Positions 16,148 through 57,899 of a stretch of 64,000 bases of DNA are shown here, piece by piece (the first letter of the stretch is position 1; every line of letters begins with the position of its first letter). Below the pieces are notes generated by a model. The model was not told the origin of the DNA. It was given only the letters and a program-made list of their open reading frames with translations, and did no database searches. Position numbers and translations under genes: made by a program. The stretch is from Rhizaria sp. SCN 62-66 (lineage: Eukaryota), in NCBI GenBank assembly GCA_001724265.1, contig MEDY01000005.1:62001-126000 (forward strand), written 5' to 3'.

Positions 16148-16806
16148 GGGGGGTGCGAGAGAGAAATACGCACAGGAACACGCTGGAGAGTCGAATGGAG
16201 CAGCTGCGGGGGAGAGGTTTGGTAGAAAACGGTCTGGGGTGGTGCCGGGGCAAATATACAAGGAAAATCGGCGATTCGAGTATGATAATTAAGAAATCAA
16301 ATAAAGCACAATAGATTAGCTCTGATAATTCAGTGTCATATACACATAACGGTGACTATGGGCTTGTAGAGCGGTTTTTGATTACGACCGTTTCCGTTTT
16401 GCAACGGATGGCTGCCGTCGGTCGCCGTGTGTCACTGTCACCGAAGAGACAGCCGCCCCACAGAGATTCCTTGGGCAAGGCATTATATGCTATAATTACG
16501 TCAAAATGAAATCATATTTGAAGACTAGTGCATCGACGTGTTTTTCCATACTATATCTCTATTATTTGTCTTAATATTGCGGTACTCATCGTCTATGCTC
16601 GCGGACATGCTCACTTCGCCACGGTGACTTGCGCTTCTCCTTAGCTCTCTTGCGCCACTCGCCAACGCAACACATCGACCACCGGTAACACTCTTGCACC
16701 GCCGCCGGGCATGCTTGCTTGCTCACGCACCCTAACCTATCACACCAATCGCACCCGTGCCTATATAGCCAGCTTATCCCGGACTGCCGTCTCAAGCGCC
16801 CGCCTG

Positions 16807-19266
16807 ATGTCATCGATCGCCCCCTCTCACGGCAGCGTCGGCAGCGCTGCAGCGGCTGCGTCTGCGCCCAGCGTGCACCGCGCTATATTTTCCGACCTAG
16901 ACGGCACCATCCTGCCCGCGCGCTCGGTGCTGCCCCCCTTAGCGAATCTGAGGGCCCTGTCGAAGTTAGGCCGCGGCGGCGTCACGCGCGTGCTCGTTAC
17001 GGGGCGCGACGCCAACTCGGCCAGGGGCATCCTGTTGGCCTGGGGGCAGCACGCCATCGACACCGACGACTTTGCTGCGGCTGCGACGCCGCAGGCTCCC
17101 GGCGCGGCGACTGAAAGCGCTGGGGCCGCGGCGGGTAACAATGATCCGCGTGCTGCGAACAAGAGCGGTTGCCACGACCCGCAGGCGGCGTTGGAGGCCG
17201 CCGCAGCGCTGCCGCACTCTGAAGACGCCGTTGCCGCGAAGGAGCGCCTCGCGCTGGCCCGCGCGCCCATCGACTATCTCATATTTTCCTCCGGTGGCGG
17301 CACGCTGAGGGTCGCTGACTGGAGCCTTACGGACGCGCGCACGCTCGGTACGTTAGCGCTCATGTTCATATCGTGTTTGGTGAACTGTATTGATTTCGAC
17401 TGTATATAATTGTTTCTCACGAAAGAATGGTTTGTTTTCGCTACGATATTGCTGCTTCGACCTCACACATGTCTTGACTATTTAATCAATGCTCAATCTC
17501 GCTTGTTTCTTCATTGTGTTTACGCATTTGTTCTGACATCTCTTGCTGATACTCCAGACCCCGCGACGTCGGCGCTCGCGGCGCAGTTCCTGGCAACTAG
17601 CGGGCTGGACTTCTTCATCCATCACCCCGTGCCGAACAACCACCACTACCACTACCACAACACGGCCTACAACAGCAACAGCAGCAGCTCGCCAGTCGAC
17701 GGCGACTCTCATGCAGAGCAAGCTAACTCATTGGAGCAGCAACAGCAACACCAGCAATGTGGCTTACTGCAGCCGTGTCCTATGTTCGCTGGCCCCGAGC
17801 GCAATCCGGACTTCACTCGCCGTCTGACCCGCATCAAGCCGCACGGGAGGCCCTTAGACAAGGACTTCTACTTACACTTGCAGCTGCAGCAACAACAGCA
17901 GCTGCAGCAGCAGCAGCAGCAGCAGTTGCAAATGCAGCAGTTGCAAATGCAGCAGTCTGAGAGTAGCAAGAAGCAGTCTCCCAGGGTCTCCGTCGACTCA
18001 AAGCAACATCCCAGTTTGCTCAGTAGCCACAAACACGCTCTGTTCAATGCCCCCAGTCACGCGCACGGCAATCATCACGCCCATACTTCTAGCCACAGCA
18101 AGCACTCTGCAAACACAGTACGCAGCATGACTACCGACAGCGCGCAGTCCCAATCCCCTCCCTCACAGTCGTCTTCGCCGTTACAGCCACTGCCGCTGTC
18201 GCAGTCCCAGGTCCAGGCCCAGTCTCCGTCGCTGTCTGTGCTGCGTCCCTCGCTGCTGCCGTCGCCGCTGAGAGAGGCCGGCGCCGGCCAACTTATTGCC
18301 ATCGTCCCCAACAGCAGCAGCAGCAACTCTAACGCGGGAAACACCGCGAGTGTGAGTGTCAGTGCGAGTCCGGGTGAGAGTTCAAGTGAGAGTGCACCAC
18401 TGAGTCCGCTGCTGCAGCAGCAGCTGTCCCCGCTATCTGCCGCACTGGCGGAGGCGACATGCCCGCAGTCGCTGGCCAAGGTCTTCGAGACCAAGCTCGG
18501 CGAGTACCTCAGCTCTCACTACAGCAACAGCAGCAGCAACTGCAACAGTGCCACAGAGTCTCCTACTTTTGTCTCTGGCTCTGATGCAGGCTCTGGCTCT
18601 GGTCCGGCCGCAGCCGTCCCCTCAGCCTTCGCCTCAACCCCCGTCGCCGCTGCCCCCGCTTCAGCCCCCGCCTCTGCTGCCCCCTGTGATGCCCCCTCCG
18701 AGGCCCCGTGTCCGTTCTCGCTGGTGTTGGCCACGTCCCCGCTGGACCACTCGTCGCTGTGGCTGGAAATCATGCCGCCCGGCGTCGACAAGGGGCTCGC
18801 CGTGCGGGCATTCGTGCGCCGAACCGCTGGCATCGAGCTCAACAGCAACAGCAACAGAAATGCGGGCAACAACAATAGCAACCTCACAGAGAAGCTTGAT
18901 GATCACAGCGCTGTGATGAGTGACGCGGCTGCTGGCCCTGTGTTGTACGAGTTCGCGGCCATGGGTAACGACTTCAACGACGTGCCACTGCTCACGCTCG
19001 GCCAGGACTACGGCAAGGCCTTCATCGTGGCAGACTCGTCGCCCATGCTCATGCAGCATCTCAAAGTCAAGCCGCCGCCGCCACAGTCTGGCGCTGCGGC
19101 GAGCGCTGCTGCTACGAGCACGGAGGCCAAGTCTGATGATGCCGAAGTCAAGCCGATCGACAGCGAAACTAAGCCGCCGGTGACTGTGGTGAGTGCGTGT
19201 GCCGAGGCCGGCTTTGCTGAAGCATGTGCGCTTGCATTCCCCGATATCTTCACGAACAAAGCATAA
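16807..19266 (+). CDS. HAD-superfamily hydrolase, Cof-like (subclass IIB), with large insertions
   Basis: Exons 16807-17347 and 17558-19266. Motif I IFSDLDGT, motif II VLVTGR, YLIFSSG, motif III LEIMPPGVDKG, motif IV AMGNDFND. Confidence 0.85.
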
Positions 19267-20751: not shown

Positions 20752-20965
20752 CTGTAACTCGGATATGTTATTTAACATTGAGGTTTCAATTGGTTACTGC
20801 ATTTATATTTGAATCAGTGCACTGTGCAGTGCGTTAACCCTGCTCCCGTTTCGTACTCACACACTCGCCTCACGCCTTGCTTATTTTCATCTTCTAGCAC
20901 TCCACAGACAGGCCCAGTGCGCTGCAACCACTGTTATAAACGCATCTACGATTGCGTCACACCAC

Positions 20966-21409
20966 ATGTCACAGTTCCCGCACACTTACAGTGCTTCGGG
21001 GCTCAACGCTGCGGGCACAGCCTTCGGCCCGCTCTCACCTGAGCCACAGCAGCAACAGCAGCGACTGACATCTGCGACGCAAGCCACGCAGGCGAGTCAA
21101 GCCAGCCCCTCTGCGACGCACACTGCGACGACAGCCGTTGGATCGGCGACCCTTGCCGAGCTGCGCGCGCGCTATGCGCCTAAGCCCGTCACCACAGCCT
21201 ACGCTTCACCCCTATCATCATCATCAACGTCTGTATCATCGTCGTCTTTGCTACATTCGTCGTCGTTGCTGCAGTCGTCAGTGCTGCAGTCACAGAGACC
21301 TGAACATGGGCAGGCGTCGCTGTTGTTGTCACCGCAGCTGCTGCTGTCGCCGTCACCACCTCGCGCTGGCGCGCAGCCCGACGCGAACACCGTCGCTCAC
21401 ACAGTCACG

Positions 21410-21465
<56 letters not shown>

Positions 21466-24400
21466 CGCACACACTGCTGCGTTCACGACAGTGACAATGA
21501 CAGCTAGCAGCAGTAGCAGTGCCAGTAGTAGCGACTTGTACAGCAAGCGGCTTAACTTTGGCGAATCTGCTGATATGACTGACAGCGACTCTACCAGAAC
21601 TGCTTCGGTCAAAGCTCATGTTAGCAACGCTGCTGCAGGGGTTGGTACCAGTGCTGCGGCGGCTGCTGCCAGTAACGGCGCCCCGTACACGCCAGTGAAC
21701 CAAATCAAGCAGGGCCACTTCCTTCCTGCTCACGGTCACTCTGCTGCTGCTGTCCACGGTCACAGTCAGTTTGTTGCCCTGGCTCCCGGGCGCTACAACG
21801 CGATGCTGTCACCCTCCCCCGGCGCAAGTTTCAACAGCACGGCCAGCAACAGCGACAACACCCGTGATAACAGCTGCAACATCGACAGCATGGCTGGCAG
21901 CAAGGCGAACACGAACGCGCTCCCGAGCCCGCAAAACGCAGACGCAAACGTGGATGCGAACAATGACATCAACACGAGCAATAACAGCGTGGGCGTGAGC
22001 ACAAATAACAAGAGTCCGAGTCCGAGCTCTACTGCTAACTTCTCCTCGAGTCCGGTCAGTCCCACGACTGTGACCGCGGCTGACGCGCCCGCGCCTGCGA
22101 CCGCGACTCCCGTGCCTGTGTCTGTGCCTGTGTCTGTCCCTGCCTCAACTGCGACGCCCGCGCAACCCGTGGCGGCCACTGCGAGCCCCAACGCGGACAA
22201 GAGCGTCGCGGTTATTGTGCGGGCGCTCGAGGCTGAGCTGGCGGCCAAGGACGCAGAGCTCGAACGCTGCTACGCCGAGGCTGAGGCATGCGCCGCGACG
22301 CTGGCGCAGAAGGACGCCGACATCGCTGAGCTGACCGAAGCCGCCGCCGAGAGGGACGCAGAGCTGGAGCGGCTTGAGGCCGCGGTCGCCGACCGGGAGG
22401 GTGACGCCGAGGTGCTGCGGCAGCGGCTGTGGGAGCGCGACTGCGACCTACGGGACGCCGAGGCCGAGATGAACGCCAAGGACCGACAGCTGGCTGAGAA
22501 GGACCGTGCGCTGGATAGGCTTGCGGCGACTGCGACGGCAACGACGACGACAACAACACCAAACGTGGGGGTGTCGGAGGAAGTGACTGATGAGAGTGTT
22601 AACGAAGATATCTCTCGTCTCAAGGCCGAGTTGGTTGCCGCGACTGCGGCCATCAGTAGCTTGCAAGAACAACTCACCGCTCTTAGTCATAACACCCACA
22701 GTATCAGCAATACCGCTCCTGCTGTTGTTGCTTACACCGGTAACGATAGCAAGATCTCTGCGCTCCTTGAGCAGAAGGACCGAGCCCTCGCCGACAACGA
22801 GCGCAAGCTGGCCGAGACTGACCGCAAGCTCACCGAGAGCGAGCGCAAGCTGGCCGACACGGCGCGCGAGCTCGCCGAGTGCAAGACCACGGCCGGCGCG
22901 GCCGCCGCTGCAGAGCGCGAGCTTCGCGTGGCGCGCAGTGAGCTGGCGGACGCCGTGGCGATGCTGGAGGAGCGCGAGGCTGAGCTGGAGCACCGGGACG
23001 GCGAGCTGGAGACGCTGGGCGGGAAGCTGGCCAAGGCCGAGGAGCGGCTGTGGGAGCGCGACTGCGACCTGCGGGGGAACGCGGCGGAGCTGGCTGCGGC
23101 GGAGAAGGCCGTGGCGGCGCTGCAGGCGAGGCTGGCGCAAGTGCAAGCGGAGAACGCCGAGCTGCAGGCTAAGGTTGAGAAAACCGCAGAGTCAGAGCCG
23201 CAGCCCCAACCTCAACCTCAATTGCAGTCTAAGCCTGAGTCTGATAATGAATACGACTCTGAGTTCTTCGAGTCTGGCGCCGAACAGCCTTCGAACCAGA
23301 TCTCACAAGAGCATGAAAAGTCGCAGCAGCAGGTGCAGCAGCTGCAGGCACAGTTGCAGCAGTGTGAGAATGCGAACCTTCAGCTGTCACAGTGTCTGGA
23401 GCAGAAGGACGAGGAGCTACAACAGCTGAGGAGGGACTGTGGGCAACTCAGGGGCGACTGTGAGCAGGCGAAGAGCGACTGTGGGCAGCGCGTGCTTCTT
23501 TACGAGCGGCAGCTGAGTGACTGTGAGCAGAAGCTGAACGACTATGAACAGCACAAGCACGTCTTGGAACAACAACTGGCGCATTTGCAACACGAGCAGC
23601 AGCAGCAACAAGAGCGGCAGAGTGTTAATGTGGTTTCTGCGGCCACGCACAGTCGCCGCAGCAAGATCTGGGACGACGGCGACAGCGATGATGAAGCCGA
23701 TGATGACAAGAAGAAGGGCAAGGACGAGGAGACGATTGCCGCCTCCAAGCCTGTGTCCAGTCCCAGTCAAATTGAGACTGATGTTGCGGACAACGCTGCT
23801 GCCAAGTACCTGGCAACTGCGTTTGCGGCCAACGACAGTCACGTTGATGGCGCGAACGCTCACGCTGGAGGTGCAGCTGTTGCCAACTCAGCGGCAACGC
23901 CTCTCCACGCGCTGCAGACGCGACTTAACTTCTCGTCTCTGTCGCTGCACTCGCCGACGCTCGTCACACAGTCACCTCCGCAACAGCAGCAGGGACACCA
24001 ACAGCAACAACCTGCCAACTTTGTGTCGCCGTTGCGCTCTCCTTCACTTCTCAGTACGAGCCCTGCATACAATAGCTCTAACGTTCGGAGCAGTCACAAT
24101 GAAAGCGGCAGCGACAATACCAGTAGAGACCCCAGTCCCCGCTCACACGCTCGCGACATTGATGTTGATGCCGACACGGTCGACGCCGCCGCCGTGAGCG
24201 TCGCTCGCGCCCTTGCCGCCGCCACGGCGCGCAACGCCCGCCTCGCTCTGCTGCTCACCACGGCGGACAGCGACCGTGAGCAGCTGCGCGCGACGCTGGC
24301 GTACACGCAGCATGACTGCGAGGCGCGGATTGACTTTCTGCGCAAGGACTGCGAGACGCGGCTTGATTTCGCGAAGCAGGACTGCGAGCGTCGCCTCACT

Positions 24401-27400
24401 GCGGCCGAGGCGCGGCTTGACTTGCTGAAGCGCGAGGGTGAGCTAGACCTCGCGCGCGCCCATGCGGCCTGCGACGAGAGGCTGCAGCTGAAGCAGGCGC
24501 AGCACGAGCGTGACCGCGAGCGCGACTGCGCGCAGCTGCAGGCCGACCGTGCGCAGTTGCAGAGGGACCGTGAGCAGCTACGCGGCGAGCGCGAGCAGCT
24601 CCTCCGCGACTGTGGGCAGTCCGAGGCAGCGTACATTCAGTCGCACGCCGCACGCGTGGCTGCAGAGGCGCAGCAGCAGGTGGCGCGGGCCCAGCGCGAC
24701 GCTGCGCACGCCCAAGAGGCTGCGGCCGCGGCTGCGACGGCAACTGAGGTGGCGGAGGCGGAGACGCACCGCGTGACGCTCGCGCTCGCGAGCAAGGAGC
24801 GCGATATGAGCGCGCTGCAGCGGCGTGTAAGGGCCCTGGAGGGCGATCTAAAGGCCGCAGCGGGTCAGGCCGAGACGGCTGATGAACAAACGCAGATGGC
24901 CAAGGCCGAGGCTGAGACGGAGCGCGAGAAGGCGAGGGTTGCGGTGCGGCTGGAGACCGAAGCCAGGGCCAAGCTGGGTGAACTGGAGGGCAAGATGGCG
25001 CTCGAGGTGCGTTGATGTCGGCAAATGACGCCAATCATCGAATTCTAACATCTTCATATGCATTGATACTCACTTCGACATTCACATTTATTCTTTTACT
25101 TCTCGATATTAGGTGCACAAGCAAGTTGCTGCGCGCACCGATGCCGCCGTCAAACACGCAGTCTCGGTCGAAATCTATCGCCGAGAGCAAGTCGAGGTAT
25201 GTCATTGAGATTCATACGAAAGAACAGACCCGCAACTCGCACGCTTTTAATATCATCTCACCAAAGCACACAAAATCATTTGATCTTTGTTTCGCAGGCC
25301 GAGTTGGCCCATCTGCGGTCCTCTCTGTCGGCCACGACGCTGGCCCTGACTCGCCAGCACGAGCGCGACAGCGCCGCGCTTGCCGCAAAGGTGGCCGTGG
25401 CGAGCACGAGGGCCAAGGCCTCCGCGGTGGCTGCCGTTGCAACTAGCGACGTTCACAGCAACACAAACACTGTGTCTAACTCTAGCTCGAACACGAGCAG
25501 TGTGACGAGCGTGAACACGCAGCTTCCCTTGCCGTCGCACCCACAGAGCCAGTTTTACTCGCAGTCGTACTCGCTGCCGTCCTCGCAGCCACAGTCCATG
25601 CCCCAGTTGCAGCCACAGCCGCACTTGCAACTGCACTCCCAATGCCCTCCCAGCCCGTCACTACTCAGTGTTGCATCGACGTTGAGCAACAACAATATCA
25701 ATGCTTACAGTCGTCAGCTAGCTGGTGGCTCTCAGTTTCACTCGCTTGCCGGCGGTGTGCCTCCCCCAACACAAGGCGGCTTTCCTTCCACACACGACGG
25801 CCTAACTTTTGCGGGCGCCGATATGATGGCGGCTCGCAGTATGTGGGTGCAGGACAGCACGACCCGCCAGCAGCAACACGCACAACAGCTGCTACAGCAG
25901 CAGCAACAACAACTTCTGCACTCGCATCAGCAGCAGCAGCAACAACAACAACAAGCCCACTCTCAACACAGTCGTGGTGGTCCTCTAAGTGCCAGCCCGA
26001 ATCTCCCCAACTAGATCAATAGCAGCAACAATACCACCAGCACTACTGGCGGCACGACTGCGCACTCGGCTTCTGGTGCGAGCGCCGCCGCCTCTGTCAC
26101 CCCAGTCGCTCCCCCGTCCGCGCTGTCCGCCGTCCACGCGCAGTGCCCGTGCCCGACCGTGCCGGTACCGCTGCCGCCGTCCTGCCTGCTGCTTGCGGGC
26201 CCGCCGCTGGCGGAGGACCTGGCGGCTGTGGTTGCACACGGGCGCCGCGGGCCGCTGCAGCGCGCGCAGGACGGCGAGCGCGCGCGGCTGGAAGACTGCG
26301 AGCGGGATGAGGCGTGGGAGAGCGCCCGGGAGCGGGTGGCAAGGGCGGTGTCGCGCTACGCGGTAGCGGCCGTGGGCACCAACGCGGGGAAGGCAGTGCC
26401 GGTGGGCAGAAAGGGTGCGGGCGGTGAAGGGAGTTGCTCTGATAGTGCTGAGCACAGTCATGATCTGAGTGCCGATAGCGCTGATGCAAACGGTGATATC
26501 ACGCAGCAGCCAAAGCACAAGCAAAGTCAGAAGACGCAGCATCAGCGGCACCAGGAGCAGCGGCCAGACGTTCAGGCTGCCGACAAGTATCGTGGCATGT
26601 GCCGCTGTTGCGGCATTATTGCGCCGCCTGCGAGCAGTGGTGTCAACACGCAGTCAACGCAGCAATGCGCGTCATGCCTGAACAACATGAATGGCACGGA
26701 CGCGAGCATGCGCCCGAGTCCTGCTGATGTCTCTCCGACTGCTGATGACTTCGGGGCTGCTTCTGTCGAAACTCACGATTTCAACAACAATAGCAACGAT
26801 ATGTTATCCTCGTCAGTTCTGTCCACATCATCGTCGCTGTCAACGCTGCCATTGACAGCCGGAAACAAGTCCAGTCGCGCATATGCAAGCATGAACGCGA
26901 GCAGTGTTGGAAACACTTCGTTGAGTGCGGTTGGCGTTAGAGGTGTTGTGGGCGCAAGGATGCGGCTTCCCCCTCGAGCACTTGCAACTGACGCCACCAC
27001 AAATTCGAGTCGCACAAGTGTAAATGCGAGCGCTGCAAGGCCGACTTCCATGAACGGCACCACCAGCAGGTCGAGCGTGTCGAATAACCCCACCACGGGC
27101 GCTCACCATCAAAGCAGCACAGTTCACAGCCGTCGTTCCAGCAGTGTTGCTGTTGATGCTGGCGATCACATCAGCAGTCGCCGCAACTCTGCAAGCCTCA
27201 ACACCCCGCTAGAGAGCCTTACAGCAAAGGCTGCTGCGGCGAAGGCCGCCGCTGCTGCCGCCGTTGCTGCGGCGGAGGCTGCTGAGGCCGAGGCCGATGC
27301 TGAAATGAAGGCTCACGCAAGAGGGGCGAAGCACAGAGGCGAGCAAAGCGGCCTCAGCGCCTTCACAGGCTACGCCAACGTGACTTACGGGGGCGGTGCA

Positions 27401-27616
27401 GTTCAAAGCAACAACGGTGGCACGTATGCTCAGGCGAACGCGAGCGCGAATGAGCGGGAGCACGCCGCAGAGAGGGCCAAGATCGCTCGCTACGCCGCGC
27501 TGAATCCTCGCTCGCAGTCGCTCACGCAGGCGTTGCCGTCACTCCACCCGCAACAAGGCGGGTACTTGCACGCGCAGGGCTACAACAACAATGCTAGTGG
27601 CGCTAGCCACCAGTAG
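20966..27616 (+). CDS. Giant coiled-coil protein containing an in-frame TAG at 26012-26014; the end may extend to TAA 27694
   Basis: Exons 20966-25006, 25113-25196 and 25298 onward. Track ORFs 25199-26014 and 26159-27616 are in the same frame and separated only by the one TAG. Long heptad-rich segments; a distal CRCC..CASC motif. Confidence 0.7.
21415..21462 (+). repeat. (CAG)16 microsatellite, read as poly-Ser (AGC)
   Basis: Perfect trinucleotide run inside the coiled-coil CDS. Confidence 0.9.
22422..23070 (+). repeat. 28-bp exact direct repeat (22422-22449 and 23043-23070) marking an internal duplication, RLWERDCDL
   Basis: AGCGGCTGTGGGAGCGCGACTGCGACCT occurs twice in frame, and the flanking peptides are also similar. 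Confidence 0.85.
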
Positions 27617-28248
27617 CATCAGTCGTTTGTGCAGTCAAATAAGGGAGAGACGAGGGCACGGACTCCTTTAGATGAGTTCCTGTATCGAATCTAAGTCTTG
27701 CGTCATGTGCTGTGACGCAAAAGCACATTACGGAAAAGAATGTCGAAGTACGATTACACTTCTCTGTTGAACTCTATTTTATCTAGTCAGTGATTAAAAA
27801 TAATACATGTTTTAGCTCTACACTCCCTTTACGTATGCATGATATAGAGTCGTAGACTGAATTGTAAAGCTTTATTGCAAAGCGTTGATGAAATAAACAG
27901 AGAAATAAAAGGATAATAGAGCTGAAAAAAAGAGTAGTAGAGATACAACTGAAAGTGATGGTAACTCGGCTAAGAAACGACATGCAATATAGTGTTAAAC
28001 AAGTCTATAGAGTGGGTATTCATCGCAGGAAATGCTACCTAAAGCGTCACCTTTGAAACAATGAACCCAGTGCATAAACAACACAACATGGCACTTGAGT
28101 GATAAAGCGCAGTGAAAACAAATCGATAACAGAAAAATAAAAGAGGAATAAGACCTGTACAGACTAACATCGTGAGTCCATGAACTTGGACTCTCTTTAC
28201 TGTTGATGTTGTTGCGGTGTACTTATTATCGCTTCACCAATAAGAAGC

Positions 28249-30693
28249 TTAGAAGAGCTTCTGCTGCTGCTGCGCCACCCAAGCCGCGACGGCCTCGGCG
28301 GCCTCCTTGCCCACAGTAACTGCCTGGTTGCTCATCGCGCTCACGGTCACCTGGCCGCGCACGACGGCCTCGGCGGCCGCAGCGACGGCGTCAGCGTATG
28401 CGACGCCAGCGTCCGCGTACACCGCGGCGGCCTTGGCCGAGAGCTCGGCGACCGAGGGCGCTATGTGCGCGTCGGAGAAGGCGACGGCGGCGTCGGTCCA
28501 CTCGGCGGGGCCAAAGTGGGCGGCGAGCGCGGCGGCGGCGGCCAGCAGGAGCACCACAGCAGCCACAACAAGCATGACGGAGCCGGCCTTGCCGCTGCCG
28601 GCCTTAACGGTCTTCTTGGCGGCGGCAGCGGCCTTCTTGGCCTCGGCCTTGGCCTTGGCGGCGGCGGCCTTGGTCATCTTCTTGCTGCTGGGCGTGCTCT
28701 TGACACTGGCGCTGGCGCCGCCCTCGGTGTTGTGGGCGAGCAACGCGGTCTCCTCGGCCTCGAGCTGGTCGAAGTCGATGATGCTGACGGGCGCGAGTAC
28801 GACACCGTCGATGCCGTGGCTGAGCCCGGCGCCCTCGACCTCGCCGACGATCTGCGCGGCCTTGGTGACCGAGAGCTCGACGTCGACGACGCCGCGCGGG
28901 CGCATCGGGGTCGCCACGGTCAAGTCGGCGACGACCTTGGAGAAGACGCGGCCGGGCGTGTCGCGCGCAGTCGCCGTCGCGGCCACGGCGGCCATGCGGC
29001 GCGGCGTGCCAGTGAGCGCCGAGTACACCGAGTCAACCGCGCCCAGCAGCGCGTTCTTGACCTTCTTGGCGGGGGTGTTGCTGGCGGCGGCGAGCGCGAG
29101 CGTCTGGCCCGCGATGGTCATCTTGAGCGCCTCCTCCCCGGCGGCGGCGGCGGCGGCGGAGTCGTCGCGCACGCGCGAGCTGGAGCGCGAGCGCGAGCGC
29201 GCGATCGCGGCGCGCACGTCGCACTTGTGGTCGTCCATGCGAGCGGAGTCGGCCGCAAAAGATGCGAGCACGGCGGCCACGTCGGCGTCCGACACGCAGA
29301 GGCCGAGCTCGGCCTTGGACGGGTCCGCTTCGGAGCTAGAGCGCGAGCGGGAGCGCGAGCTCTCCATAGTAGAGGGACGGGGCACGGCGGCGGCCTCGGC
29401 CTCCGTCTCGGCGTCGAGCTCGTCCGCAGTGATGGTCTCAGCGTCGGCGCTCGCACTGGCGTTGGCGGACTGAGCAGCCTCAGCCTCGGTGGTGGAGCCG
29501 TTGCTGGCAGGGACGGGGAGGTGACCGTGGAAGCTGAGGCCGCCGCTGACAAGGCTCTTGCGGCGGCTCGCACTCGCCTTTGCAGTAGCCGTGCTTGCGG
29601 TGCCGTTGGTGGCGGCCTCGGCGGCGGCAGCAGCGGCGGGCGCGAGCGCGAAGCCTGCGGCGGGGGCGGGCGCGGGGGCCGAGGCACGCAGCAGCGACGC
29701 GCGGTTCACGCGGGGCTTGATGTCGGGGGAGTTGAGCGCGGCGACGAGAGAGGCGCGACGGCGGCTGCCAGCGCTCTTGGAAGCATCGGCGGCAGCGACG
29801 GGCTCGGCCTCGGTGTCGGCGTGGTCGTCGCCGTTGTCGGTGATGGGGATGTCAGCACAACCACAAACAACGTCAGCCTCAGCCTCCTCCTCTTCCTCCT
29901 CATTGTCGTCGTCGTTGTCCTCATCGTCGGTGGTCTGGTTGTTGTAGTCGGTCACGTCCGTCTCCGTCTGCGGCTCCTCCTTCTCGAACATGCGGATCAT
30001 CGGACTCTTGAAGCTCACCGTGAGACGCTTGGCGCGCTTCTTCTCGGCCTCAGTCTCCTCAGCAGTCGCAGCAACATTGTTTCTAGCAACAGCGCCTCTG
30101 GTGACACGCCCAGTGTTAACAGGCGTTGACAAACTCTTGCGGGCAGCCTTCGCGCTCGCGCTGCTGGAGCTCGCGGGGGCCGGGGCCGCGAAGGCATCAG
30201 TGAAGAAGTCGGAGGGGAGCTCGTTCTCCCAGTTCGAGTTGCTGAACTGGGCCTCGAACGCAGCGTTCTCCTTGTCCACGGCAGCCTCCATCACGCTCTC
30301 GCGCTCCTCCTGTTCCTTGATGGCCGCGGCAGCAGCCTTGGTGACGCGGCGCTTGGGCGCGGCGGCGGCGGCGACGACGGGGGCCGAAACGGCAGCGGCG
30401 AGCGGGCCCGCCTTGGAAGTCGTCATCACCGACTGACGACGCGTCATACGCATGGTGCCCGCGGCAACGGCGGCGGCCTTGGCGGCGTCGACCGTAGCGG
30501 ACGGCGCGTCGACGGCGGCGTTCGCGGAGGCCGAGGACGGCAGGGCCTGGAGCAGCGTGGTGCGGCGGGCGCTGGTGCGAGTGCCGGCAGTCGCGGTCGC
30601 CGTAGAAGCGGCGGGGGCCGCGGAAACGGCGACAGGCTTCAGCGGGGCAGCGGTGCCAGTCGCAAGGGTAGCGCGGCGGGTTCGAGTGAGCAT
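28249..30693 (-). CDS. Uncharacterised Ala-rich protein with a near-C-terminal transmembrane helix
   Basis: 814-aa intronless ORF with host-like codon usage. TM segment VMLVVAAVVLLLAAAAALAAHF; linear motifs DKEN, KRLTVSF, several RRxS/T and S/TP sites. Confidence 0.8.
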   Translation of the reverse strand: MLTRTRRATLATGTAAPLKPVAVSAAPAASTATATAGTRTSARRTTLLQALPSSASANAAVDAPSATVDAAKAAAVAAGTMRMTRRQSVMTTSKAGPLAAAVSAPVVAAAAAPKRRVTKAAAAAIKEQEERESVMEAAVDKENAAFEAQFSNSNWENELPSDFFTDAFAAPAPASSSSASAKAARKSLSTPVNTGRVTRGAVARNNVAATAEETEAEKKRAKRLTVSFKSPMIRMFEKEEPQTETDVTDYNNQTTDDEDNDDDNEEEEEEAEADVVCGCADIPITDNGDDHADTEAEPVAAADASKSAGSRRRASLVAALNSPDIKPRVNRASLLRASAPAPAPAAGFALAPAAAAAAEAATNGTASTATAKASASRRKSLVSGGLSFHGHLPVPASNGSTTEAEAAQSANASASADAETITADELDAETEAEAAAVPRPSTMESSRSRSRSSSEADPSKAELGLCVSDADVAAVLASFAADSARMDDHKCDVRAAIARSRSRSSSRVRDDSAAAAAAGEEALKMTIAGQTLALAAASNTPAKKVKNALLGAVDSVYSALTGTPRRMAAVAATATARDTPGRVFSKVVADLTVATPMRPRGVVDVELSVTKAAQIVGEVEGAGLSHGIDGVVLAPVSIIDFDQLEAEETALLAHNTEGGASASVKSTPSSKKMTKAAAAKAKAEAKKAAAAAKKTVKAGSGKAGSVMLVVAAVVLLLAAAAALAAHFGPAEWTDAAVAFSDAHIAPSVAELSAKAAAVYADAGVAYADAVAAAAEAVVRGQVTVSAMSNQAVTVGKEAAEAVAAWVAQQQQKLF

Positions 30694-31845: not shown

Positions 31846-34800
31846 ATGGCGTCCACGAACCCGCTAAACAAGGCGCCGCCCGCGCGCGTGGCTGACTACT
31901 TCACCACCATCGGCGCCTCCCCGTCCGCGCTCATCTCCATCCTCACTGCCTATACCTTTAGCGCCAGCTCCGTCGGCCTCGGCGCCGGCGCCGTCGGGGG
32001 CAGCGGCTCCAACGTCGGCGTCGCCGGCGGGGCACCCCTCGCTATTACAGAGTCGGGCTCCGCCGTCTCAGCCGACGGCAACGCGCGCACCGCTAGCGCC
32101 AGCGCCAGTGTCAGCGTCGCGCCCAACGCATCCAGTGCTCCGGGCGCGGCCGGGCGCAACACGGCCTCGCCCTCGGTCGCGTCGGCGTCCAGCTCCACCG
32201 CCACGAACCCCGGCGGCAGCGCGCTGGACCACTCCAACTCCGCCAGCGCCAGCGCCATCGCGGCCGCGGGCGCTGGCGGCAGTGCGACGGCGGCCTTCTC
32301 CCGCGCCGTGTCGTCGCTGCGGCGGCAGTCGCTGGCGTCGACGCCGCTGAAGCCCGCGGTGCTGTCGCGCTTCCCGCCCGTGGACCACGCCGACACGGAG
32401 CACCCGCGTGACCTCCCGCTCTTCGTCTTCCCCGCGGGCTACGCAGTGTCTGAGCGCCCGCAGCGGCCCGAGTGCGCGTCCTTCGTGCTCACAGAGGCCG
32501 ACGGCACGCGCGTCTACGGCGTCTACCTGCGCTTCCACCACGAGCTTCGCGACCTGGTGGACCAGCTTGCCGCCATCCACACACTCACCGCGCCGCCCGG
32601 CACGCCGCTGCCGTTCGATCCCGCCGTGTGCAAGGCCACGATGGGCCAGGCGTGGGTGCCCTTCGTCGTCTGCGTCACCTCGCACTGGGCCTTCCTCACG
32701 CAGCTCAGCTCCATGCTGCGCCAGCTCTTCCACAAGGTCATCCTCGCCAGCCAGGCGCTCAAGCAGAACCATGTACGTGCAGCCGGTAGACTGTCCTGTT
32801 TATAGATGAACTCGTGATATTTTATATCCGTGTGATGCGACTCAAAATACGTTTTCCTCTTGCTATCCTCATATATTCGCTTTCCAATCCCTTTCTTCCG
32901 CTTACTATGTTTTGCACACAACATAGGACCACGCGGCCTTCCTGTCGTCCTCGTCCTCTGTGCCCGGGGTGTCACTGTCCTCGCTGCCAGCCGACTTCGC
33001 CGTGTGGTCCGCGCCGCTGGAGCGCTACTACGCCAACATTATCTACGAGACGCCGCTGCCGCCGCCGGGCCGGCTCGTTGTCGAGTCACGCTCGCTGCCC
33101 ATGCCGCTCATCTTCGCGCGCCCGCCGCCGAACCGGCTGCCGCTGCGCGACTTCGCGCTCACCTCGCTCTTCCGCTGGTTGTCGATCGAGAACGTGATCC
33201 GCCTCTTTGTTGCCGTCACCACCGAGCGCCGCGTCCTCTTTGTCTCGCAGTACCCGGAACGGTACGTGAATGTAGATAGGCTTAATTAAAGCGCAAACTA
33301 GCGTTTGAACACTATTTGTACAAGTGATCGAAAATTTCCTTTTTTCCATCATAACGACACACATCTCACATATATTTACATTCACATTGCTTGTTATTGC
33401 ATTTCTAGTTTGACGATTGCGGCCGAGAGCATCTGCGCGCTCATCTTCCCCCTCTTCTGGCGCCACGTCTACATCCCGCTCATGCCGGCCGCGCTGACCG
33501 ACTTCGTGTGCGCGCCGATGCCCTACATCGTCGGCGTGCTGTCTTCGTACATGCCCGACGAGCTGATGTTGGACCAGGTCGTTGTCGTGCACCTAGACCG
33601 CAACCACCTCGACATGATCAACACGACCCTGCCGCCGCTGCCCGACGCGCGCGCGTCGTCGCTGCTGCGAGGGCTCAAGAAGGCCGTGCCCAGTGCGGAC
33701 CCGGCACAACCGCTGCACAACCCGACCGCCGCGGTCGACGACTTCAACGTCGAGGTCTGCTTCCTCAAGCTCTTCGTCAAGCTGCTGGGCACGTACCGCA
33801 ACTACCTCGAGGCGCCGGCCGAGTACGTGCTAGACAAGATCGACCGCGAGCGGCTGATGGCCGAGCATCCCGAGTCGGGCCCATTCCTGACCGAGTTTCT
33901 CGACACGCAGATGTTCCAGTGCTTCGTCGACGACCGGTACGAGGCCTCAGCGCAGGCCTGGGCCACGGCCGCCGTCGCTGCACACGGGCATCCGGGCCAC
34001 CACCTGCAGCAGCAGCAGCAGCAGCACCTGGACATCCTCTTCTTCGACGAGATGGTTGACAAGAGCAACGGCAAGCCGACGCCTTTTCTGACTGACACGT
34101 CGCAGGACCACGCGCGCCTGCCCGTCGTCGCAGTCAAGGCCAACTCCACTGCGCTGCCCAGCAACTGGCAGGAGCTCACCGGCGCATCGCTTGCCCACAC
34201 GGGCCTGCTCAGTATCAGCCACGACAGCGGCGACGCGGCCGCAGTGCTGGGCGCGGGCGGCAGCGCGAACCCGTACGAGCTGGGATGGCCACTGCTCGCG
34301 CACGCCGACTGGTTTACCCAGGGCGTGCGGCCAGTCACCCCGCTCGTTCCACTCACCAACGCAGCAGGCAGCAACGCCGCCGGCGCGCTCGCCAGTGGCA
34401 GCGCGGGCGCCGGCGGCGCGGCAGGCGGCCTGGCCAGCAGCAGCTCGAGCTCCAGCGCGGGCAGCAACGCCACTGCCACCACCTCCACAGGAGGCGGTAG
34501 TGGCGACCTGGGCCGGCTCAACCTGAAGTTCTTCGCGGACAAGCGGCTGTACACGCAGCACTTCCACGCGCTGCGGCTCAAGTCCTCGAAGCAAGACTCG
34601 CTGTTCAAGGACGTCGTGCGCTACCTGACCAACCAGCAAGCCTGCGACGAAGACATCGCGGCCGGCGTCGACAAGCTCTGCGCGGCCACAGTCAACGCTA
34701 CTCCGCTCGTCACGGCGACGAGCATCGACAAGCCGTGGCAGACGATCCTGACGTCGCTCGAGGCGCACGCGCACCGCGACGCCGTGCTGCTGCAGCAGTC

Positions 34801-36397
34801 GCGCCAGGACGTCTTTGTCCCGCTCGCCACGGCCGTTGTCGAGGCAGAGCAGCGCCTCAGGATCCTCTTCTCAGAGGCCGCGCGCCTCGAGAACCAAGTA
34901 TGTCAAAGCTGTATATTTTATTTGATACGAATCATCATTCATGCAAATCAATTTCTAATTTCTTGTGGTGTGATATCAATGGTCCACTATTCCCCGAATG
35001 TATCTCATCCTTCCTTATGTCATCTTGATCTGTTGTATCTCTTTCTTGTTCAGGCCGGTCAAGCCAAGGCCGTGTCAGAGAAGGCCAAAAAGAAGGCCGA
35101 GTTCACGAAGCAGCGCTACGCCGCGCTGGTCAACAAGCGCGCCGTGTCGAGCAGCAGCGAGAGCATGTTCAACTCCTTCTCCAGTGTCGACTTGCACAAG
35201 GTGCTCGACGCGCACAGTGCCATGGAGGACGCGGGACTTGCACTCGACCAGGTACGTGTCCCTCACAAAACAACTATATCTCGTTGATAGTGCGTTCCCG
35301 TACTCCGCTTAGTTTTATCGCCGAATACTCACATATGCCATCCAATTTTATCTTTTTGTGCAATTTGTTCTATCTCCAGGCCGAGATTGCGTTCCAGATG
35401 GTTCTGCGCGAGTACGACGCGCGCATGCCGCAGATTATCGAGAACATCCGGCAGCTCAACGTGGTGCGCATCGAGCAGTTCAAGCAGCGCATGCAGGTGT
35501 GGGTGCAGCTCAAGCAGCAGAGTCTGCGCGAGCAGCTCGCCGCGCTCGACTCCCTCGCCGGCGACGTCGAGTCGATCAACGTCGACAAGGACGTCAAGAC
35601 GTTCAGCGAGGGCATGAAGGACTTCTGGCTCGCGGCGGCCAGCGGACACGTGTCGACCGCGGCGATCCTCGCCTCCACGGTCGCCAACACCAGCGCGAAC
35701 AGCAGCGGCGGAGGCAGCGCCAAGGAGACCATTCCGGAGTCCGAGGACGAGACTGCTGCCAGCGATAATAATAATAACGACAATCAGGATGGTGAGGACA
35801 ACAAGGCGAGCGACAGCGCTGATGCCAAGACTGGAGCTGCTGCAAACGACGACGAGTCCAAATCCAGCGCTGCCGCCGCCGCCGATGACTCCAAGCCTGC
35901 GGACGCGGACGCTGACGCTGACCCCCGCACCACCGTCGCCGAGAGCAACGCCAAGGACGACGTCGATGTGGTCGACGTCAACACCGACGACGCCAAGCAA
36001 GAACCCGAGCGTCCTGAGCAAGAGTTCAAGCAGGAGCCTGAGCAGGAGGAGGCGACCGTGTGCCCCGGCTTCACGTCGAACATCCTGACTTTCCCCGTGG
36101 CGCTGGGACTCAAGCTGACTGCGTCGCGGCAGCAGCAGCAGTCTCAGCTGCAAAGCCAGCACCAACGCTTCCTGCAGCAGCAGCTGGCGCGGTCCGCGGC
36201 GCTGCGCACGCTGCCCGCCACCACCACGGCCGCCACGGCCTCGGCGCACAGCCAGAGCAACGCGTTCGGCAGCGGCTCCGGCTCCAACTCGAGCAGCGAC
36301 AACGCTGCTGCTGGCACCACTGGCGGCAGCGTTGGCCGGACGCAGTTCCAGTCGCAGACGCTGTCGCAGGTGCAGATCCTGCAGCTGCAGCAGCAGT

Positions 36398-36436
<39 letters not shown>

Positions 36437-39400
36437 GTGGCGACAGCGGCCTGCCCCCGATGCCGCCGCGGCGCGTGAGCGGTGGAAGCAGCGCTAGCCA
36501 CAGCCGCAGCCAGAGTCAGAGCCAGAACTTTAACGCCGCCGCCGCGAACGCTGCCGGAATCGCTCCGCTGACCACGGTGACGGTGACCGCGGCGCAGAGC
36601 GGTGGCAACAACAGCAACAACAGCGCCGCCGACTCGCAGAGCAGCGCGACCGCCGGCAGCGGCCCGTACCGGGGCAGAGATGCGTCCAACACTGTCGTCG
36701 CCGCCGCGGACGCCGCCGCCGCCGCAGTTGCCTTCACGACGGCGTCGGCCGCGCTCGTGCTCGGCGGCCGCTCGCTCCTGTTCCGCCCCGTCGTCGGCCG
36801 CGGCAAGAGCAGCGCGGGCAAGGACGCCAGCGCGGACGGCTTCGTGCTGGATCCCGCGGTACCGACGGCGCTGAGCTCGGTCTTCTCGGCCGCGACGCCC
36901 ACCCCCAGCGCGCCCGCGCCCGCCGTCGCCGTCGTCGCTGTGGTTTTCACGCTGCTCCCTATCACCGCGGCCGAGTCCGCTGACGACTGCGCGAGCGACG
37001 CTGCTGCCGGCGCTGCGGGTGCGGTGGCGGTGACCGTGGCAGTGCTGCCCGAGGCGCTCAAGGTGACTGAGACGGTGGAGACCGTCGGCCGCGCGCTGCT
37101 GGTGCCCGCCACGACGACTGTGGCGACGGCCGTGAGCGCGAGTGCGGCCGCCGCCTCGAGCGCCGCCGGCCGCCTGTTGCTGCCCTACCTTGCCAGCGCG
37201 GGCGCGGGCGCCAGCGGCGGCGGCGCGGCCGGCAGAGACACGCTGCGGTTCGTTGGTGCGAATCAGCTGACGGTGGACCTGTCTTCGCTGCAGGCGCTGG
37301 ACGATGCCGCGGGCGGCATCCTCTCGAACGCGACCAGCGCGGCCGGCAACAACAGCTCGGCCACCGCGGCCTCCACGGCCGCCGCCGCCGCGGCCACCAA
37401 GGGCTTCGTGTCCGCGACGCGCTCCACCGCCAGCTCCAGCGCCAGCGCCAGCGCCAACGGCTCCGGCGCCGGTGCGGGCCCGAGCTCCAGCGCGGTGCCG
37501 CCGCGCACGACCGTGGTCAACACGCAGATCCGGTTCCCGACGATGCTGTGGGGCGCGGCGGGGTTCGACCTCGCGCTGTCTAACTGTCAAACCACCAAGG
37601 ACAGCACCAAGGAGTTCATGCTTCTGCTCGACAGCTGGGCCCAGGCCGAAGACGCCAGGTATGTCTCATATCACTAAAACAAACATCTGAAACCGTTATA
37701 TCATCTAATGCTGGCAAAACTAATTGAATTCAATCGTTCACTTCTGCTCTTGTTTTGCTGTATGTCTTGTTTTGTTCTCGCATTAGGGCTAAGCGCCTTG
37801 CCGCTGCGATCAAGCCCTCTTCGCTGCCTCCGCCGCCGGCAACTGCGTTCGGGCCGACGCAGCGCGCGCTGTGGGAGCAGCTGCGCGAGTCGATCCGCTT
37901 TACTGCGCAGGGCCACAACGACCTCTCATGTCTGCTGTACAAGGTCGCGTTCGCGATGCGCATCGTCAAGGGCGAGCTGAAGCAGGCCAAGCGGCGCTAC
38001 CAGGACCACAAGGTGCGGCTTGAGCGCGAGCTCCAAGCGGCGCAGGATGTTGTCTCGCGCGCCGCCGACAAGAGCGCGCGCGCGCGCGCCGCGTGGCTGC
38101 TGGTGGAGCAGCGCGGCGGCGGCGTCTCGGGCCAGTCGGCGCTGTCGGCGCGCGACTACGAGACGACAGCACGCACGCTGGACCGAGTCGGCGGCGAGTA
38201 CAAGGAGGCAGAGCACCTGCTGCTGCTCGCGCAGCGCGACTGCGAGGCCACGCGCCGCAAGCACGACATCTGCGTCGGCCGGCTCTGTGCGCTGCTCGAG
38301 CGCAAGGAGAAGAAGACCAGTCTGGAGCTGCAGCGTGCCTTCTGGGTGCTGTGCGATTGGGTTAACAGCCGCACCGTCGACGTCTCGCTCTACGTCGACA
38401 AGGTGCTGCTCACGCCCGGCGTCGACGGCCTCAACGCCGACGCCGAGATCCGCGACGTCATCGCGAAGCTGGCCCCCGAGATGGAAGTGTCTCTGAGCGT
38501 CGTCTCCCGTGAGCTCAGCTCCCCCGTGCTGCTCGCGCACGCCTCGAACCCCAACACCATCGCCGTCGCCGCCGCCAAGAACGGCGGCGCCGCGGTAAGC
38601 GCCGCGGGGGGGGTCGGCGTGAGCGTGAGCACGAAGGGCAACGCCACCGTCAGCGTCAGCCGCAGCAACAACAACGCGACGGACAACACGGTCTCGTACA
38701 GCGACAACCACGCCACCCACAACGACGACAGCACCGTCGTCTCGACCACGCCCACGGTCGCGAGCAATGCCCACACCGGCGCCGCCGGCGCTGCTGGCGC
38801 CGTTGTGACTGCCGGCGCAGTCGAGACGCTCGAGGTCGAGTACATCTGCAAGCTGGCCTCGCATATGGACTCCGTCTTCGCCACCGCGGGTTCCGTCGCC
38901 GACTACCTCAAGCACATTTGCACGCTGCTCGACGAGGTCGCCAACACCGAGGAGGTAACCGCCAAGACGCTCCGCAAGCTCCAGCTCACAGTCAAGGCTA
39001 AGTACGTTTAATTATTCGTTATGTTTCAATGCTTATTATGCCTAACTCAACTCAAATTCACTCAATGTTATTTTTTTAACTGAATTCATCTCACTTCATG
39101 TTTTCTATCTTTCTCGTCATACTTCCCCCAGGACCGCGCACCCGAGTCTGCAGTCGTGCTTCGTGGCGCTGGGCCAGCTGCTGGAGACGGTGGCGGCGCG
39201 CTCCGAATGTGAAACGCGTCTTCTGCGCGACACGGCCAAGCACATGTCGTCCTTCCGCACGCGCTTCCGCGACAGCACCAAGTCGCGCGAGAAGCGCTTC
39301 AGCGATCTGCGCAAGGTGTACGAGTCTGCCGTGACGGAGCGCGATCGCGCGCGGCGCGACCACGAGGCTGCCGCCGAGGCGTTGTTGACGCTGAACCCGA

Positions 39401-41415
39401 AGCTGGCGGCGCTGGAGAGCGACGAGGCGGCCAAGAAGGGCAGCTTCTTCAGCAAGTCGCCTTACGACATCGCTAAGGGCAAGGTCGAGGCGGCGCAGAA
39501 GGACCTGGAGCGCGCGCAGCGCAGCCTCGTCAAGAAAGAGGAGACGCTCCTGGCCGCCACGGACGCGCTGCGCAGCGAGACGAGTGTGCTGCTGCGCGCG
39601 TGCTACAGCGACGAGCGGCACCGGTGCGAGTACCTCTCGACGGCCTTCTCGACTGTCGTGGGCTCGCGGCGGCCCGCGCTGGCGTCGCTGCAGGCCGCTG
39701 TGGCCGCGCTCGACGCCACCACCAGCACCGTCAACAGCGAGACGGACCTGGGGCTCATTCTCTCCTCCCTCAGCACCGCAGGCGGCGCCGTTGGCTACAC
39801 CGTGAACGCGAGCTTGAGTCAACACCCCAAGGCCGCCGGCGGCGTCGGCGCCAGCACCAGCGCCATCAGCCTGCTCGGCAGCAACGCCGCCGCGGGCGCT
39901 GGCGCTGCTGCTGCTGGCGCCGGCTCGCGCGCTGCCGCGGCGGGCCCCGTGGTGAGCCTGGTGGGCGGCGAGCCCGTGCCCGAGGTCGTGCTGACGGACG
40001 TGGAGCTGATGCTCACGGCGGAGCGCGAGGAGGTGGCCGAGATGCTCGATACGTGCACCGCCGTCGCCGCCGACCGCGCCGCTGAGGAGCAGGTCAAGCT
40101 GCACTACGCAGCGGCCGCGCGCATGCAGCAGCACATGCAGCCGGGCAACAGCACCAACGCCAGCACCAACGCCAGCAACTACAACATGTACGGCGGCGGC
40201 GCGGGCACCGGCGTGTTCGCCACCGTCGGCAACCCGCAGCAACAGCAGCAGCAGCAGTTCGCGGCCGGCGGCGTCCGCTCCGGCGCCGGCGCGCTGTCGC
40301 CCGTGAGCACCGTAAGCACCGTGAGCGGCGTCGTCGGCGCCACGGGCGTGCTCTCGCTGGCCGCGCTCGGCGGCTCCACGCAGAACCTACTCTCGGGCAC
40401 CAGCAACGGCATCGCGGGCGGCGCGAACCTCAGCGCGAACGCCGGCGGGGCGAACACTGGCGCCAACGCGGCCGTGTTCATGTCTGCGCCGCCCACCCGC
40501 CGCGCGGCGCACAGCAACCCCGCCAGGTCGTCGGCCAACGGCAACGGCAACGGCAACGGCAACTCGAGCGGCGACAGCAACAGCCTGGCCACCGAGAGTG
40601 ATGGCGCGAGCGCCAACGCGGCCGTCACGCCGTCCGCCTCCGTCGCGATCGCGGTCAACGCCAACGCCAACCCTGCCGTGAGCGCGAACGGTAACGCGAA
40701 CACTGCCACGGTCGGTCTCGGCGGCCCGTCGCCGGTGCCGGTGCCCATCCCCCCGCGGGCCTCGGTGGCGCCGCACCGGACCAGCGTCTACGTGGGTTCG
40801 GCCCCCGCCAGCACCAGCAGCGTCTTCAGCTCCAGCGCGATCGGCAGCGTTGCTGCTCCTGGGGCGTCTGGCTCTGCTGCGCCTGCGCCTGCGACTGGAA
40901 CTGCTGGCTCCGGCGTCAGCGCGATTATCAGCAGCCCCAACGGCACTCACGCCCCGCACAAGCCCGTCCGGCCCTCGACCTGCACCCCTGCGCACGCGCC
41001 GTCGGCCCCCGCTGCCAACACCGGCAGCGCCGCCGCTGCTGGCAACGCCGCGAACCCGTCTCCGCCGGCGACGCCGCGCCAGCGCCCTGCTTCTCTCAAC
41101 CCCAGCGCGGCCAGCGCCAGCGCGGGCGCCGGTGGCAATCGCGTGAGCGCCAGTGGCGCCGCGAGCGGACATGCCGCGCCGTCGCTGCCCCAGCGCCCGT
41201 CGCCGCAGCAGCCCCACCACACTGGCGCTGGCGCTAGCAGCAATACGGGCAGCCCGGGCGTGACTGCGAAGGCGGGCGCGAGCGCGACTCCGAACCCAGG
41301 GGTGACTGGCTCGGGCTCAGGGGCTGCGGTTGCCGATGCGACTGCTGCGGCGAGGCCTGCAGCTGGCTCTGTGGCCGCGGCTGCCGCTCTGTTCGGCGGC
41401 AGAGTGAAGCCTTAA
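31846..41415 (+). CDS. DENN-domain protein (putative Rab GEF) followed by three F-BAR-like coiled-coil modules
   Basis: Exons 31846-32772, 32927-33261, 33409-34897, 35054-35251, 35380-37658, 37787-39001 and 39132-41415; all junction phases are consistent. uDENN: ADYF, SRFP..DH, LFVFP.G, FVLT.ADG.R.YG. cDENN: ERRVLFVS, LIFPLFWRHVYIPLMP..L.DFVCAPMPYIVGV. dDENN: FL.EFLDTQMF..F. Confidence 0.88.
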
Positions 41416-57300: not shown

Positions 57301-57899
57301 CGCTCTGGGGCGAAGGCGGCACGGGCACCGCCGTCCCCGCTCCGATCCTCTTCCGCGGCGGCGCTGCGACCGCGAGCGACGGCGCATCGGCGCTGCTGGC
57401 GGACCTGGCGTCGCTCGAGTGGTCGCGGCAGGTCCGCGGCGCCGTGCGCCACGCAGTGCGCGGCGCCGTCTCCGAGTGCGTGTGCTGCCGCCAGCCGCTC
57501 TGGGGGCTCTTGCTGTCGGCTCCCGCGGCCGCCACGGCACCCGCGGCCTTCAGCAGCAGCCGCGTCGCCGCGCCCGGCGGCGTCAGGGTGCACGTGCGCG
57601 GGCACACGGTGCCTGACGCGGCTGCGGGGCCCGGTGCGGCCGCGCATGCCGCAGAGGGGCTGCTTACCGCGGGCAAGGGTGAAGAGAGTGTGAGTGGGGT
57701 GCTGTCGAAGTACAGCCCTGAGACGATCGCCGCTGCAGTGGCCACGGTCGCGAATAACAACGGTAGGATCGCGGTGGACAACAACTCCACGACTACCGAT
57801 GGAAGCTCTGGTCCGGAGCACAATAACCTTACGGGCGCTCTTGAAACTGCTCTGGCTATGGCTCTGAGGTGCGCTCTCTGTGGCGCTGTCGCACGGTAA
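45378..57899 (+). CDS. ~4,100-aa protein, tentatively TFIIIC subunit 4 (GTF3C4/tau60)-like and massively inflated
   Basis: Exon 45378-45492 plus a 12.2-kb exon 45703-57899 (intron GTACGC..TAG, phase 1). Dispersed beta-propeller-like strands (RCAVAVATS, AVSFSP, MAVGSRAGTVALY) and a C-terminal Cys pattern HVF..RCSVTG..CVCC..CALCG. The CDS is secure; the product call is tentative. Confidence 0.5.

Follow-up and report, generated by a model that had tools for sequence, protein, structure and literature searches.

An in-frame TAG in a coding-like frame of about 2,150 codons from Rhizaria sp. SCN 62-66: a possible recent truncation by an ordinary stop codon

A stop codon standing between two long in-frame open reading frames (ORFs) on one transcript is described for Drosophila kelch, in which the product of ORF1 has a mass of 77 kDa and the ORF1-ORF2 product a mass of 160 kDa, according to the account in bioRxiv 10.1101/2020.06.22.165522. 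In-frame UAG codons are also a feature of codes that have reassigned UAG while keeping UAA and UGA as stops; in the figures given in PMC5304391, Iotanema spirale reads UAG as Gln and has 204 in-frame UAG in 126 genes (about 8% of its Gln codons), and the rhizarian exLh reads UAG as Leu and has 384 in-frame UAG in 71 genes. Here we describe a single TAG at 26012–26014 (+) of a 64,000-nucleotide stretch of Rhizaria sp. SCN 62-66 DNA (contig MEDY01000005.1, positions 62,001 to 126,000; hereafter the window). The TAG interrupts the frame of a coiled-coil gene, and the same frame stays open behind it for 533 codons (26015–27613, +), a stretch that we call ORF2. The TAG is real, it occurs in sequence from an RNA library, and the frame is coding-like on both sides of it. 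We infer that translation stops at TAG 26012 and that the break in the frame is young. The account that we favor, to which we give about an even chance, is that the TAG is a normal stop that recently truncated, within a disordered tail, a once unbroken frame of about 2,150 codons.

To establish whether the base is real, as the original prediction had urged, we compared the TAG and its surroundings with assembled contigs from public data, a kind of evidence that can mask a second allele or a minor spliced form. In the window, the TAG lies in the context ...CTC CCC AAC TAG ATC AAT AGC AGC AAC..., in frame with the third exon of the gene (codon position 1 at coordinate mod 3 = 2), which agrees with the in-frame position that had been predicted. 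DNA contigs from runs X2 and X3, whose contig sets are identical and probably represent one data set, cover 25646–27036 with the TAG present and no differences. A contig from run X4, which belongs to a different study, covers 25396–26211, likewise with the TAG present and no differences. Because the X4 contigs also cover introns, X4 behaves as DNA. The region 24000–28300 is near-invariant across the 2015–2025 data sets, with one difference in 4.3 kb, a G>A change at 28114 in run X4; on account of this difference, X4 represents a slightly different strain, and the TAG is still there. A JGI metagenome contig of 1,446 nucleotides (nt), L001, carries the TAG unchanged as well, and the exact 271-residue ORF that ends at the TAG (25199–26011) is on record in four contigs. 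At the RNA level, the polyA metatranscriptome run X6, from an activated-sludge study, contains a 473-nt contig that is colinear with the window over about 25899–26371 and shows no other letters, gap or joint. The TAG is present, unedited and unspliced in this library contig, which is a single contig of depth 2.7 that may hide minor forms and may stem from DNA carry-over. Run X6 has no contigs over introns or over an intergenic stretch, an observation that is uninformative at such depth and was not used as evidence.

Several trivial explanations were considered for the TAG. Sequencing or assembly error is ruled out by the identity of the TAG across contigs of several runs and L001, and a chimeric join at the CAG/CAA (poly-Gln) repeat just upstream (25881–25965, +) is ruled out by the contigs of X2/X3 and X4, which run through the repeat even though the mapping masks it. 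RNA editing is unsupported, as the X6 contig, single and of low depth, has no other letters at the site. Pyrrolysine was set aside, given the eukaryotic locus and the fact that no tRNA genes were found within the window, where Rfam families gave no match either.

We scored the frame before and after the TAG with a codon log-odds model, for which the other long ORFs of the window supplied 11,956 training codons. Over almost all of 25300–27700, the frame of the TAG outscores the other five frames, and windows straddling the TAG (25960–26139) score +0.36 to +0.53 per codon. The original prediction had described a coding signal that runs on past the TAG for about 530 codons, with no AT-rich spacer and with no in-frame ATG for about 190 codons, and this description proved accurate. 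ORF2 is open for 533 codons, which has a chance probability of about 2e-7 at the local base composition; the other two forward frames over the same stretch contain 13 and 23 stops. The GC content of the 150 nt after the TAG is 0.69, as against 0.31–0.55 after 11 other gene ends, and the first in-frame ATG of ORF2 lies at 26597–26599 (+), 194 codons past the TAG. The motifs that had been named are also present in the translation of ORF2, namely a helical block, LQRAQDGERARLEDCERDEAW, and the Cys motifs CRCC ... CASC. Amino-acid composition is alike on both sides of the TAG, and the GC content at third codon positions (GC3) is 0.60 for the frame that ends at the TAG and 0.67 for ORF2. The best-scoring segment of ORF2 is the whole frame, from first to last codon, with 78 bits or 0.146 bits per codon. 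This value is lower than those of exon 3 (49.9 bits over 194 codons, 0.26 per codon), exon 1 (378 bits over 1,214 codons, 0.31 per codon) and the window's best antisense decoy (0.20 per codon), and because ORF2 scores no better than that decoy, the score alone is no proof of coding. Taken together, the score, the open length and the matching GC3 make the two parts look like one frame, or like a frame that was continuous until recently. The coding signal across the TAG and the lack of an AT-rich spacer indicate that the downstream part is unlikely to be an old, independent gene, which bears out the earlier judgment that a separate gene was improbable. We also considered a minus-strand gene under 25988–26653 and rejected it; it has a lower score and is shorter than the forward frame, and it is a codon-aligned antisense frame of the kind typical of GC-rich genes.

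ORF2 belongs to no known family, and relatives were sought in several collections. There was no Pfam match, and neither a word-index protein search nor the ESM Atlas returned relatives. A phmmer search of ORF2 against 1.84 billion representatives gave only a 103-residue self fragment and one weak match (E 8.5e-4), and a scan of JGI metagenomes returned only an identical contig of 1,446 nt. An exact 40-nt pattern, sought in contigs of prokaryotic genomes in case the genome had been mis-binned, gave 0 hits.

ORF2 is closed by a second TAG at 27614–27616 (+), which the original prediction had not noted, and we compared the surroundings of both TAGs with those of 11 reference gene ends in the window (seven TAA and four TGA). 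The next in-frame stop lies 533 codons after TAG 26012, 25 codons after TAG 27614 and 3–30 codons after the 11 other ends. The GC content of the next 150 nt, 0.69 after TAG 26012, is 0.45 after TAG 27614, which falls inside the range of the other ends given above. Over the next 25 triplets, the codon log-odds are +0.72 for TAG 26012, −0.20 for TAG 27614 and −0.90 to +0.39 for the other ends, and the corresponding GC3 values are 0.68, 0.52 and 0.32–0.60. TAG 26012 is an outlier in all four measures, and TAG 27614 is within the range of the other ends in all four. The simplest reading of these terminator-like surroundings is that TAG 27614 terminates translation and, read in this way, the organism uses TAG as a stop. 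The 25 in-frame triplets that follow, with the TAA behind them (27617–27694, +), could be coding only in the event that TAG 27614 is decoded as well.

In the account that we favor, TAG 26012 would be read as an ordinary stop, and the product would be a coiled-coil protein of 1,613 residues. The 533 codons past the TAG would once have formed the C-terminal tail of this gene, until one nonsense mutation of recent evolutionary date cut them off within a disordered, low-complexity region rich in Ser, Asn, Thr and Gln. This change would be common to the nearly clonal populations sampled so far, and the tail would now serve as a long 3′ untranslated region (UTR), translated at most through background read-through or re-initiation. 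The coding signal that runs straight across the TAG suggests that both sides were recently one reading frame. Also in favor of this account are the colinearity of the site in independent assemblies and in the RNA-library contig, the absence of TAG from the other coding frames, the terminator-like surroundings of TAG 27614 and the lack of a downstream RNA structure of the kind that promotes read-through. Among the 4,797 possible single changes in ORF2, 123 create a stop, and the frame would be expected to stay open only to about 0.07 neutral substitutions per site, which implies either that the break is young or that ORF2 is still under selection. Since the sampled populations are nearly identical, any one recent mutation would be common to all of them, which makes a young break plausible. 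The locus resembles ordinary nonsense truncations in having a single stop in an otherwise intact frame, with a downstream frame that is open and of the same codon style, and in that TAG appears to end translation at another point of this frame (27614). It differs from them in that no orthologue or second allele that could document an ancestral sense codon was found, and in that TAG is the only allele seen across samples.

Several observations weigh against this account. The TAG allele was the only one seen at 26012 in every assembly, over several samples and years. An unbroken frame of 533 codons is also expected from selection for the translation of ORF2, and nothing dates the TAG. The searches run brought up no relatives of the gene, and hence none with a sense codon at the TAG site. 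The implied 3′ UTR, about 1.6 kb or more in length and GC-rich, has no counterpart at any of the window's other gene ends, and TAG terminates none of 13 other genes. Finally, a second allele with a sense codon could be hidden by the contigs, as could a spliced form of low abundance.

Alternative splicing could leave the TAG out of some transcripts and join exon 3 in frame to ORF2, and the introns of the window provide a standard for this possibility. Fifteen donors were read by eye (GTACGT in eight, GTATGT in four, GTACGC in two and GTGCGT in one, with G at −1 in 13 of the 15), and the 12 complete introns that were measured are 101–227 nt long, with a GC content of 0.32–0.45, a T content of 0.28–0.45 and, in 10 of the 12, G after the acceptor. 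We screened GT-AG pairs that enclose the TAG, are 40–400 nt long, preserve the frame and introduce no new stop. Of the 40 pairs, only 25839–26105 (+; 267 nt, a multiple of three, GTATGT...CCCCAG) has a donor hexamer that real introns use. The remaining exon sequence, 39,548 nt in all, contains GTATGT only once, and because the hexamer is so rare in exons, the candidate is not trivial; in addition, its acceptor has a pyrimidine tract of 0.8, and its length is near the observed range. However, its composition (GC 0.58, T 0.14) lies outside the values found in all 12 measured introns, it has A at donor position −1 and T at acceptor position +1 (T in none of the 12), and no CTNAC-like branch motif was seen by eye at a usable distance within 25839–26105. 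The segment also scores as coding in frame, and the sole RNA-library contig, of low depth and possibly from DNA carry-over, is unspliced across the candidate acceptor. Judged by the form of a GTAYGT donor, a YAG acceptor, a length of 100–230 nt and an AT- and T-rich composition, the candidate falls outside the class despite its donor hexamer, and it differs from the window's own 12–15 introns both in composition and in flanking bases. With exitron-like introns it shares a canonical GTATGT donor, a length that is a multiple of three and exon-like sequence, but the candidate contains a stop, and no spliced form was seen in contigs. We therefore see only a slender chance, at best, that such an atypical intron explains the locus. 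Gene fission, a variant of the favored account in which the upstream gene really does end at TAG 26012 and ORF2 now yields a separate product from an internal start (ATG 26597 or a non-AUG codon) on the same or an internal transcript, has in our estimate a slim chance. It fits with the existence of an ATG-to-TAG ORF of 339 residues, which is on record in one contig, and with the closure of ORF2 at a terminator-like TAG followed by UTR-like sequence. It fits poorly with the sequence directly behind TAG 26012, where the high GC content leaves no AT-rich intergenic or promoter stretch of the kind expected from the other gene ends, where the coding signal begins at once, 194 codons ahead of the ATG, and where the amino-acid composition is the same as before the TAG.

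The remaining alternatives hold that UAG 26012 is decoded, either by a kelch-like read-through that adds 533 residues or in a lineage that has cleared its UAG terminators and is starting rare sense use; taken as a whole, we regard decoding as unlikely, with a small yet appreciable probability. In the case of programmed read-through, which the original prediction had named as the alternative and which we consider improbable, some ribosomes would decode UAG with a near-cognate tRNA, yielding an ORF1-ORF2 isoform of about 2,147 residues, and selection would keep ORF2 open. The improbable length of the open frame, a coding score that is positive from the first to the last codon and already high in the first 25 triplets, the lack of both a spacer and a nearby ATG, and the transcript-library contig that spans the TAG colinearly are all compatible with this explanation. 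Drosophila kelch, as described in bioRxiv 10.1101/2020.06.22.165522, offers a precedent for a very long ORF2 behind one stop, and the likeness extends to the single transcript and to an ORF2 without a nearby start; kelch, however, has a UGA and a stem-loop enhancer, whereas the present case has a UAG and no significant structure and is known from sequence alone. The 149 nt from the TAG (26012–26160) fold with a z score of −0.85, and 34 of 200 shuffled sequences fold as well, so that a stable downstream structure is lacking. The coding score per codon of ORF2, below those of exon 3, exon 1 and the best antisense decoy, also speaks against read-through, as does the lack of conservation evidence for ORF2 in the searches run. 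Leaky stop contexts include UAG-CAR-YYA and a C at position +4. The AAC-UAG-AUC found here is presumably unlike them, which would also speak against read-through. The other form of decoding, in which UAG is a rare sense codon through a UAG-only reassignment that is uncoupled from UAA or at an early stage, would extend the gene to TAA 27692, and we judge it very improbable. In its favor, the two TAGs in the window's coding frames belong to the same gene and could be explained by one hypothesis, and no TAG stands at the end of any of the 13 other genes; the codes of Iotanema and exLh, in which UAA and UGA are kept as stops (PMC5304391), are precedents. The original prediction had counted 14 gene ends, nine with TAA and five with TGA. 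The absence of TAG among them holds, and the tally itself is revised: our own count outside this gene is 13 ends (the 11 reference ends and two more that were resolved), with eight TAA and five TGA. Such an absence is only weakly unusual, as its probability would be 0.8^13 = 0.055 if TAG ended a fifth of genes. Against reassignment, 14,326 other in-frame codons are free of TAG, with an upper 95% bound of about 2e-4 per codon. These codons come from about 14 other genes and from this gene up to the TAG, and they include 579 Gln codons, the conserved class I histone deacetylase (HDAC) and a frame of 4,090 codons. At an Iotanema-like usage of about 8% of Gln codons, a figure taken from the account cited above, about 50 TAGs would be expected among these codons, and none was seen. 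The known UAG-only codes average 1.6–5.4 in-frame UAG per gene in the data given in PMC5304391. The recurrence of in-frame UAG in many genes that marks such codes is not found here, neither in the 14,326 codons nor, among them, in the class I HDAC. Furthermore, coding signal, GC3 and GC content all drop to UTR levels precisely at the second TAG. The locus resembles the Iotanema and exLh codes in that TAA and TGA are clearly stops and TAG is absent from the 13 other gene ends, but those codes, as reported in PMC5304391, have many UAGs in conserved genes, whereas the 14,326 codons examined here have none and ORF2 is itself closed by a TAG. The proposal that UAG serves as a sense codon was not sustained by the codon count and by the terminator-like TAG 27614, while the accompanying remark that the other coding sequences, the longest included, are free of in-frame TAG was correct. 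The code-change interpretation is not supported.

The gene that a young nonsense change would have truncated has, up to TAG 26012, three exons (20966–25006, 25113–25196 and 25298–26011, +) and 1,613 codons counted from the ATG at 20966, a model that was not part of the original prediction. Introns 1 and 2 are predicted from splice signals and reading frames, and no spliced RNA was seen. Exon 1, of 1,347 codons, starts at the first ATG of an open frame that spans 20813–25012. The ORF of 1,349 codons that runs from this ATG (20966–25015) ends in a TGA that falls inside predicted intron 1 and is not the end of the gene. Intron 1 (25007–25112, +) is 106 nt long with a GC content of 0.37; its donor is GTGCGT after an exonic GAG, its acceptor is TAG, and it holds the in-frame TGA. 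It is followed by exon 2, with 28 codons, where the switch of frame agrees with the codon-score profile, and by intron 2 (25197–25297, +), which is 101 nt long with a GC content of 0.40 and has the form GTATGT...CAG. Exon 3, with 238 codons, encodes the end of the coiled coil and then a disordered tail rich in Ser, Asn, Thr and Gln. The sole Pfam match of exon 1 is a weak one to TMF_DNA_bd (E 0.004, under the curated cut-off), and a word-index search, which covers shorter proteins, returned no useful relatives of this exon. Exon 1 also contains 21-nt (7-codon) tandem units at 23414–23552 and 24524–24620 (+), of the type GACTGTGAGCAG, which are heptad-like and have a recurring Cys codon.

The window as a whole is the nuclear DNA of an uncultured eukaryote, with GC-rich coding stretches (GC3 0.7–0.9) separated by AT-rich spacers and short AT-rich introns. 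The same DNA turns up in metagenomes of bioreactors, wastewater and activated sludge that date from 2015 to 2025, and in polyA metatranscriptomes too; the deeper metagenomes include a contig of 142,830 nt. Pfam searches of the window identified a class I HDAC (E 1e-84), DENN/dDENN and TPR domains. The nearest protein to the product of the HDAC gene (6423–7730, −) is 83% identical and lies on metagenome contigs, which points to a related uncultured species in public data. The best named match is from Balamuthia mandrillaris, with 67% identity over 84% of the query, and serves as a taxonomic lead only; an Atlas search with the HDAC yielded no useful hint of taxonomy. The build of introns is very uniform throughout the window, and donor hexamers are scarce in exons (21 in 39,548 nt). 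At 16711–19266 (+), two ORFs in the same frame (16645–17406 and 17410–19263) are split by an in-frame TAA, which at first sight resembles the TAG described here. This look-alike was rejected: the two ORFs belong to one gene, and the TAA sits in a normal AT-rich intron at 17348–17557 (GTACGT...CCAG, 210 nt, GC 0.39). Among the other long genes, 31846–41412 (+) is apparently a single, very long multi-exon gene with at least five introns, GTACGT or GTATGT donors and a TAA at 41413, and it carries the end of a DENN domain and a dDENN domain at 33482–35284. The frame of 4,090 codons mentioned above (45627–57896, +; 3,964 codons from the first ATG) has a coding score of 1,711 bits and matches no Pfam family at E ≤ 0.01.

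If TAG 26012 is indeed an ordinary stop, the meaning of this locus is one of caution, in that a single in-frame stop in one fast-evolving, low-complexity gene is no evidence for a changed code, no matter how smoothly the frame runs on. If UAG is instead decoded at this position, the gene would be a rare non-animal case of a very long read-through extension or, at the outside, would represent an early stage of UAG-only reassignment.

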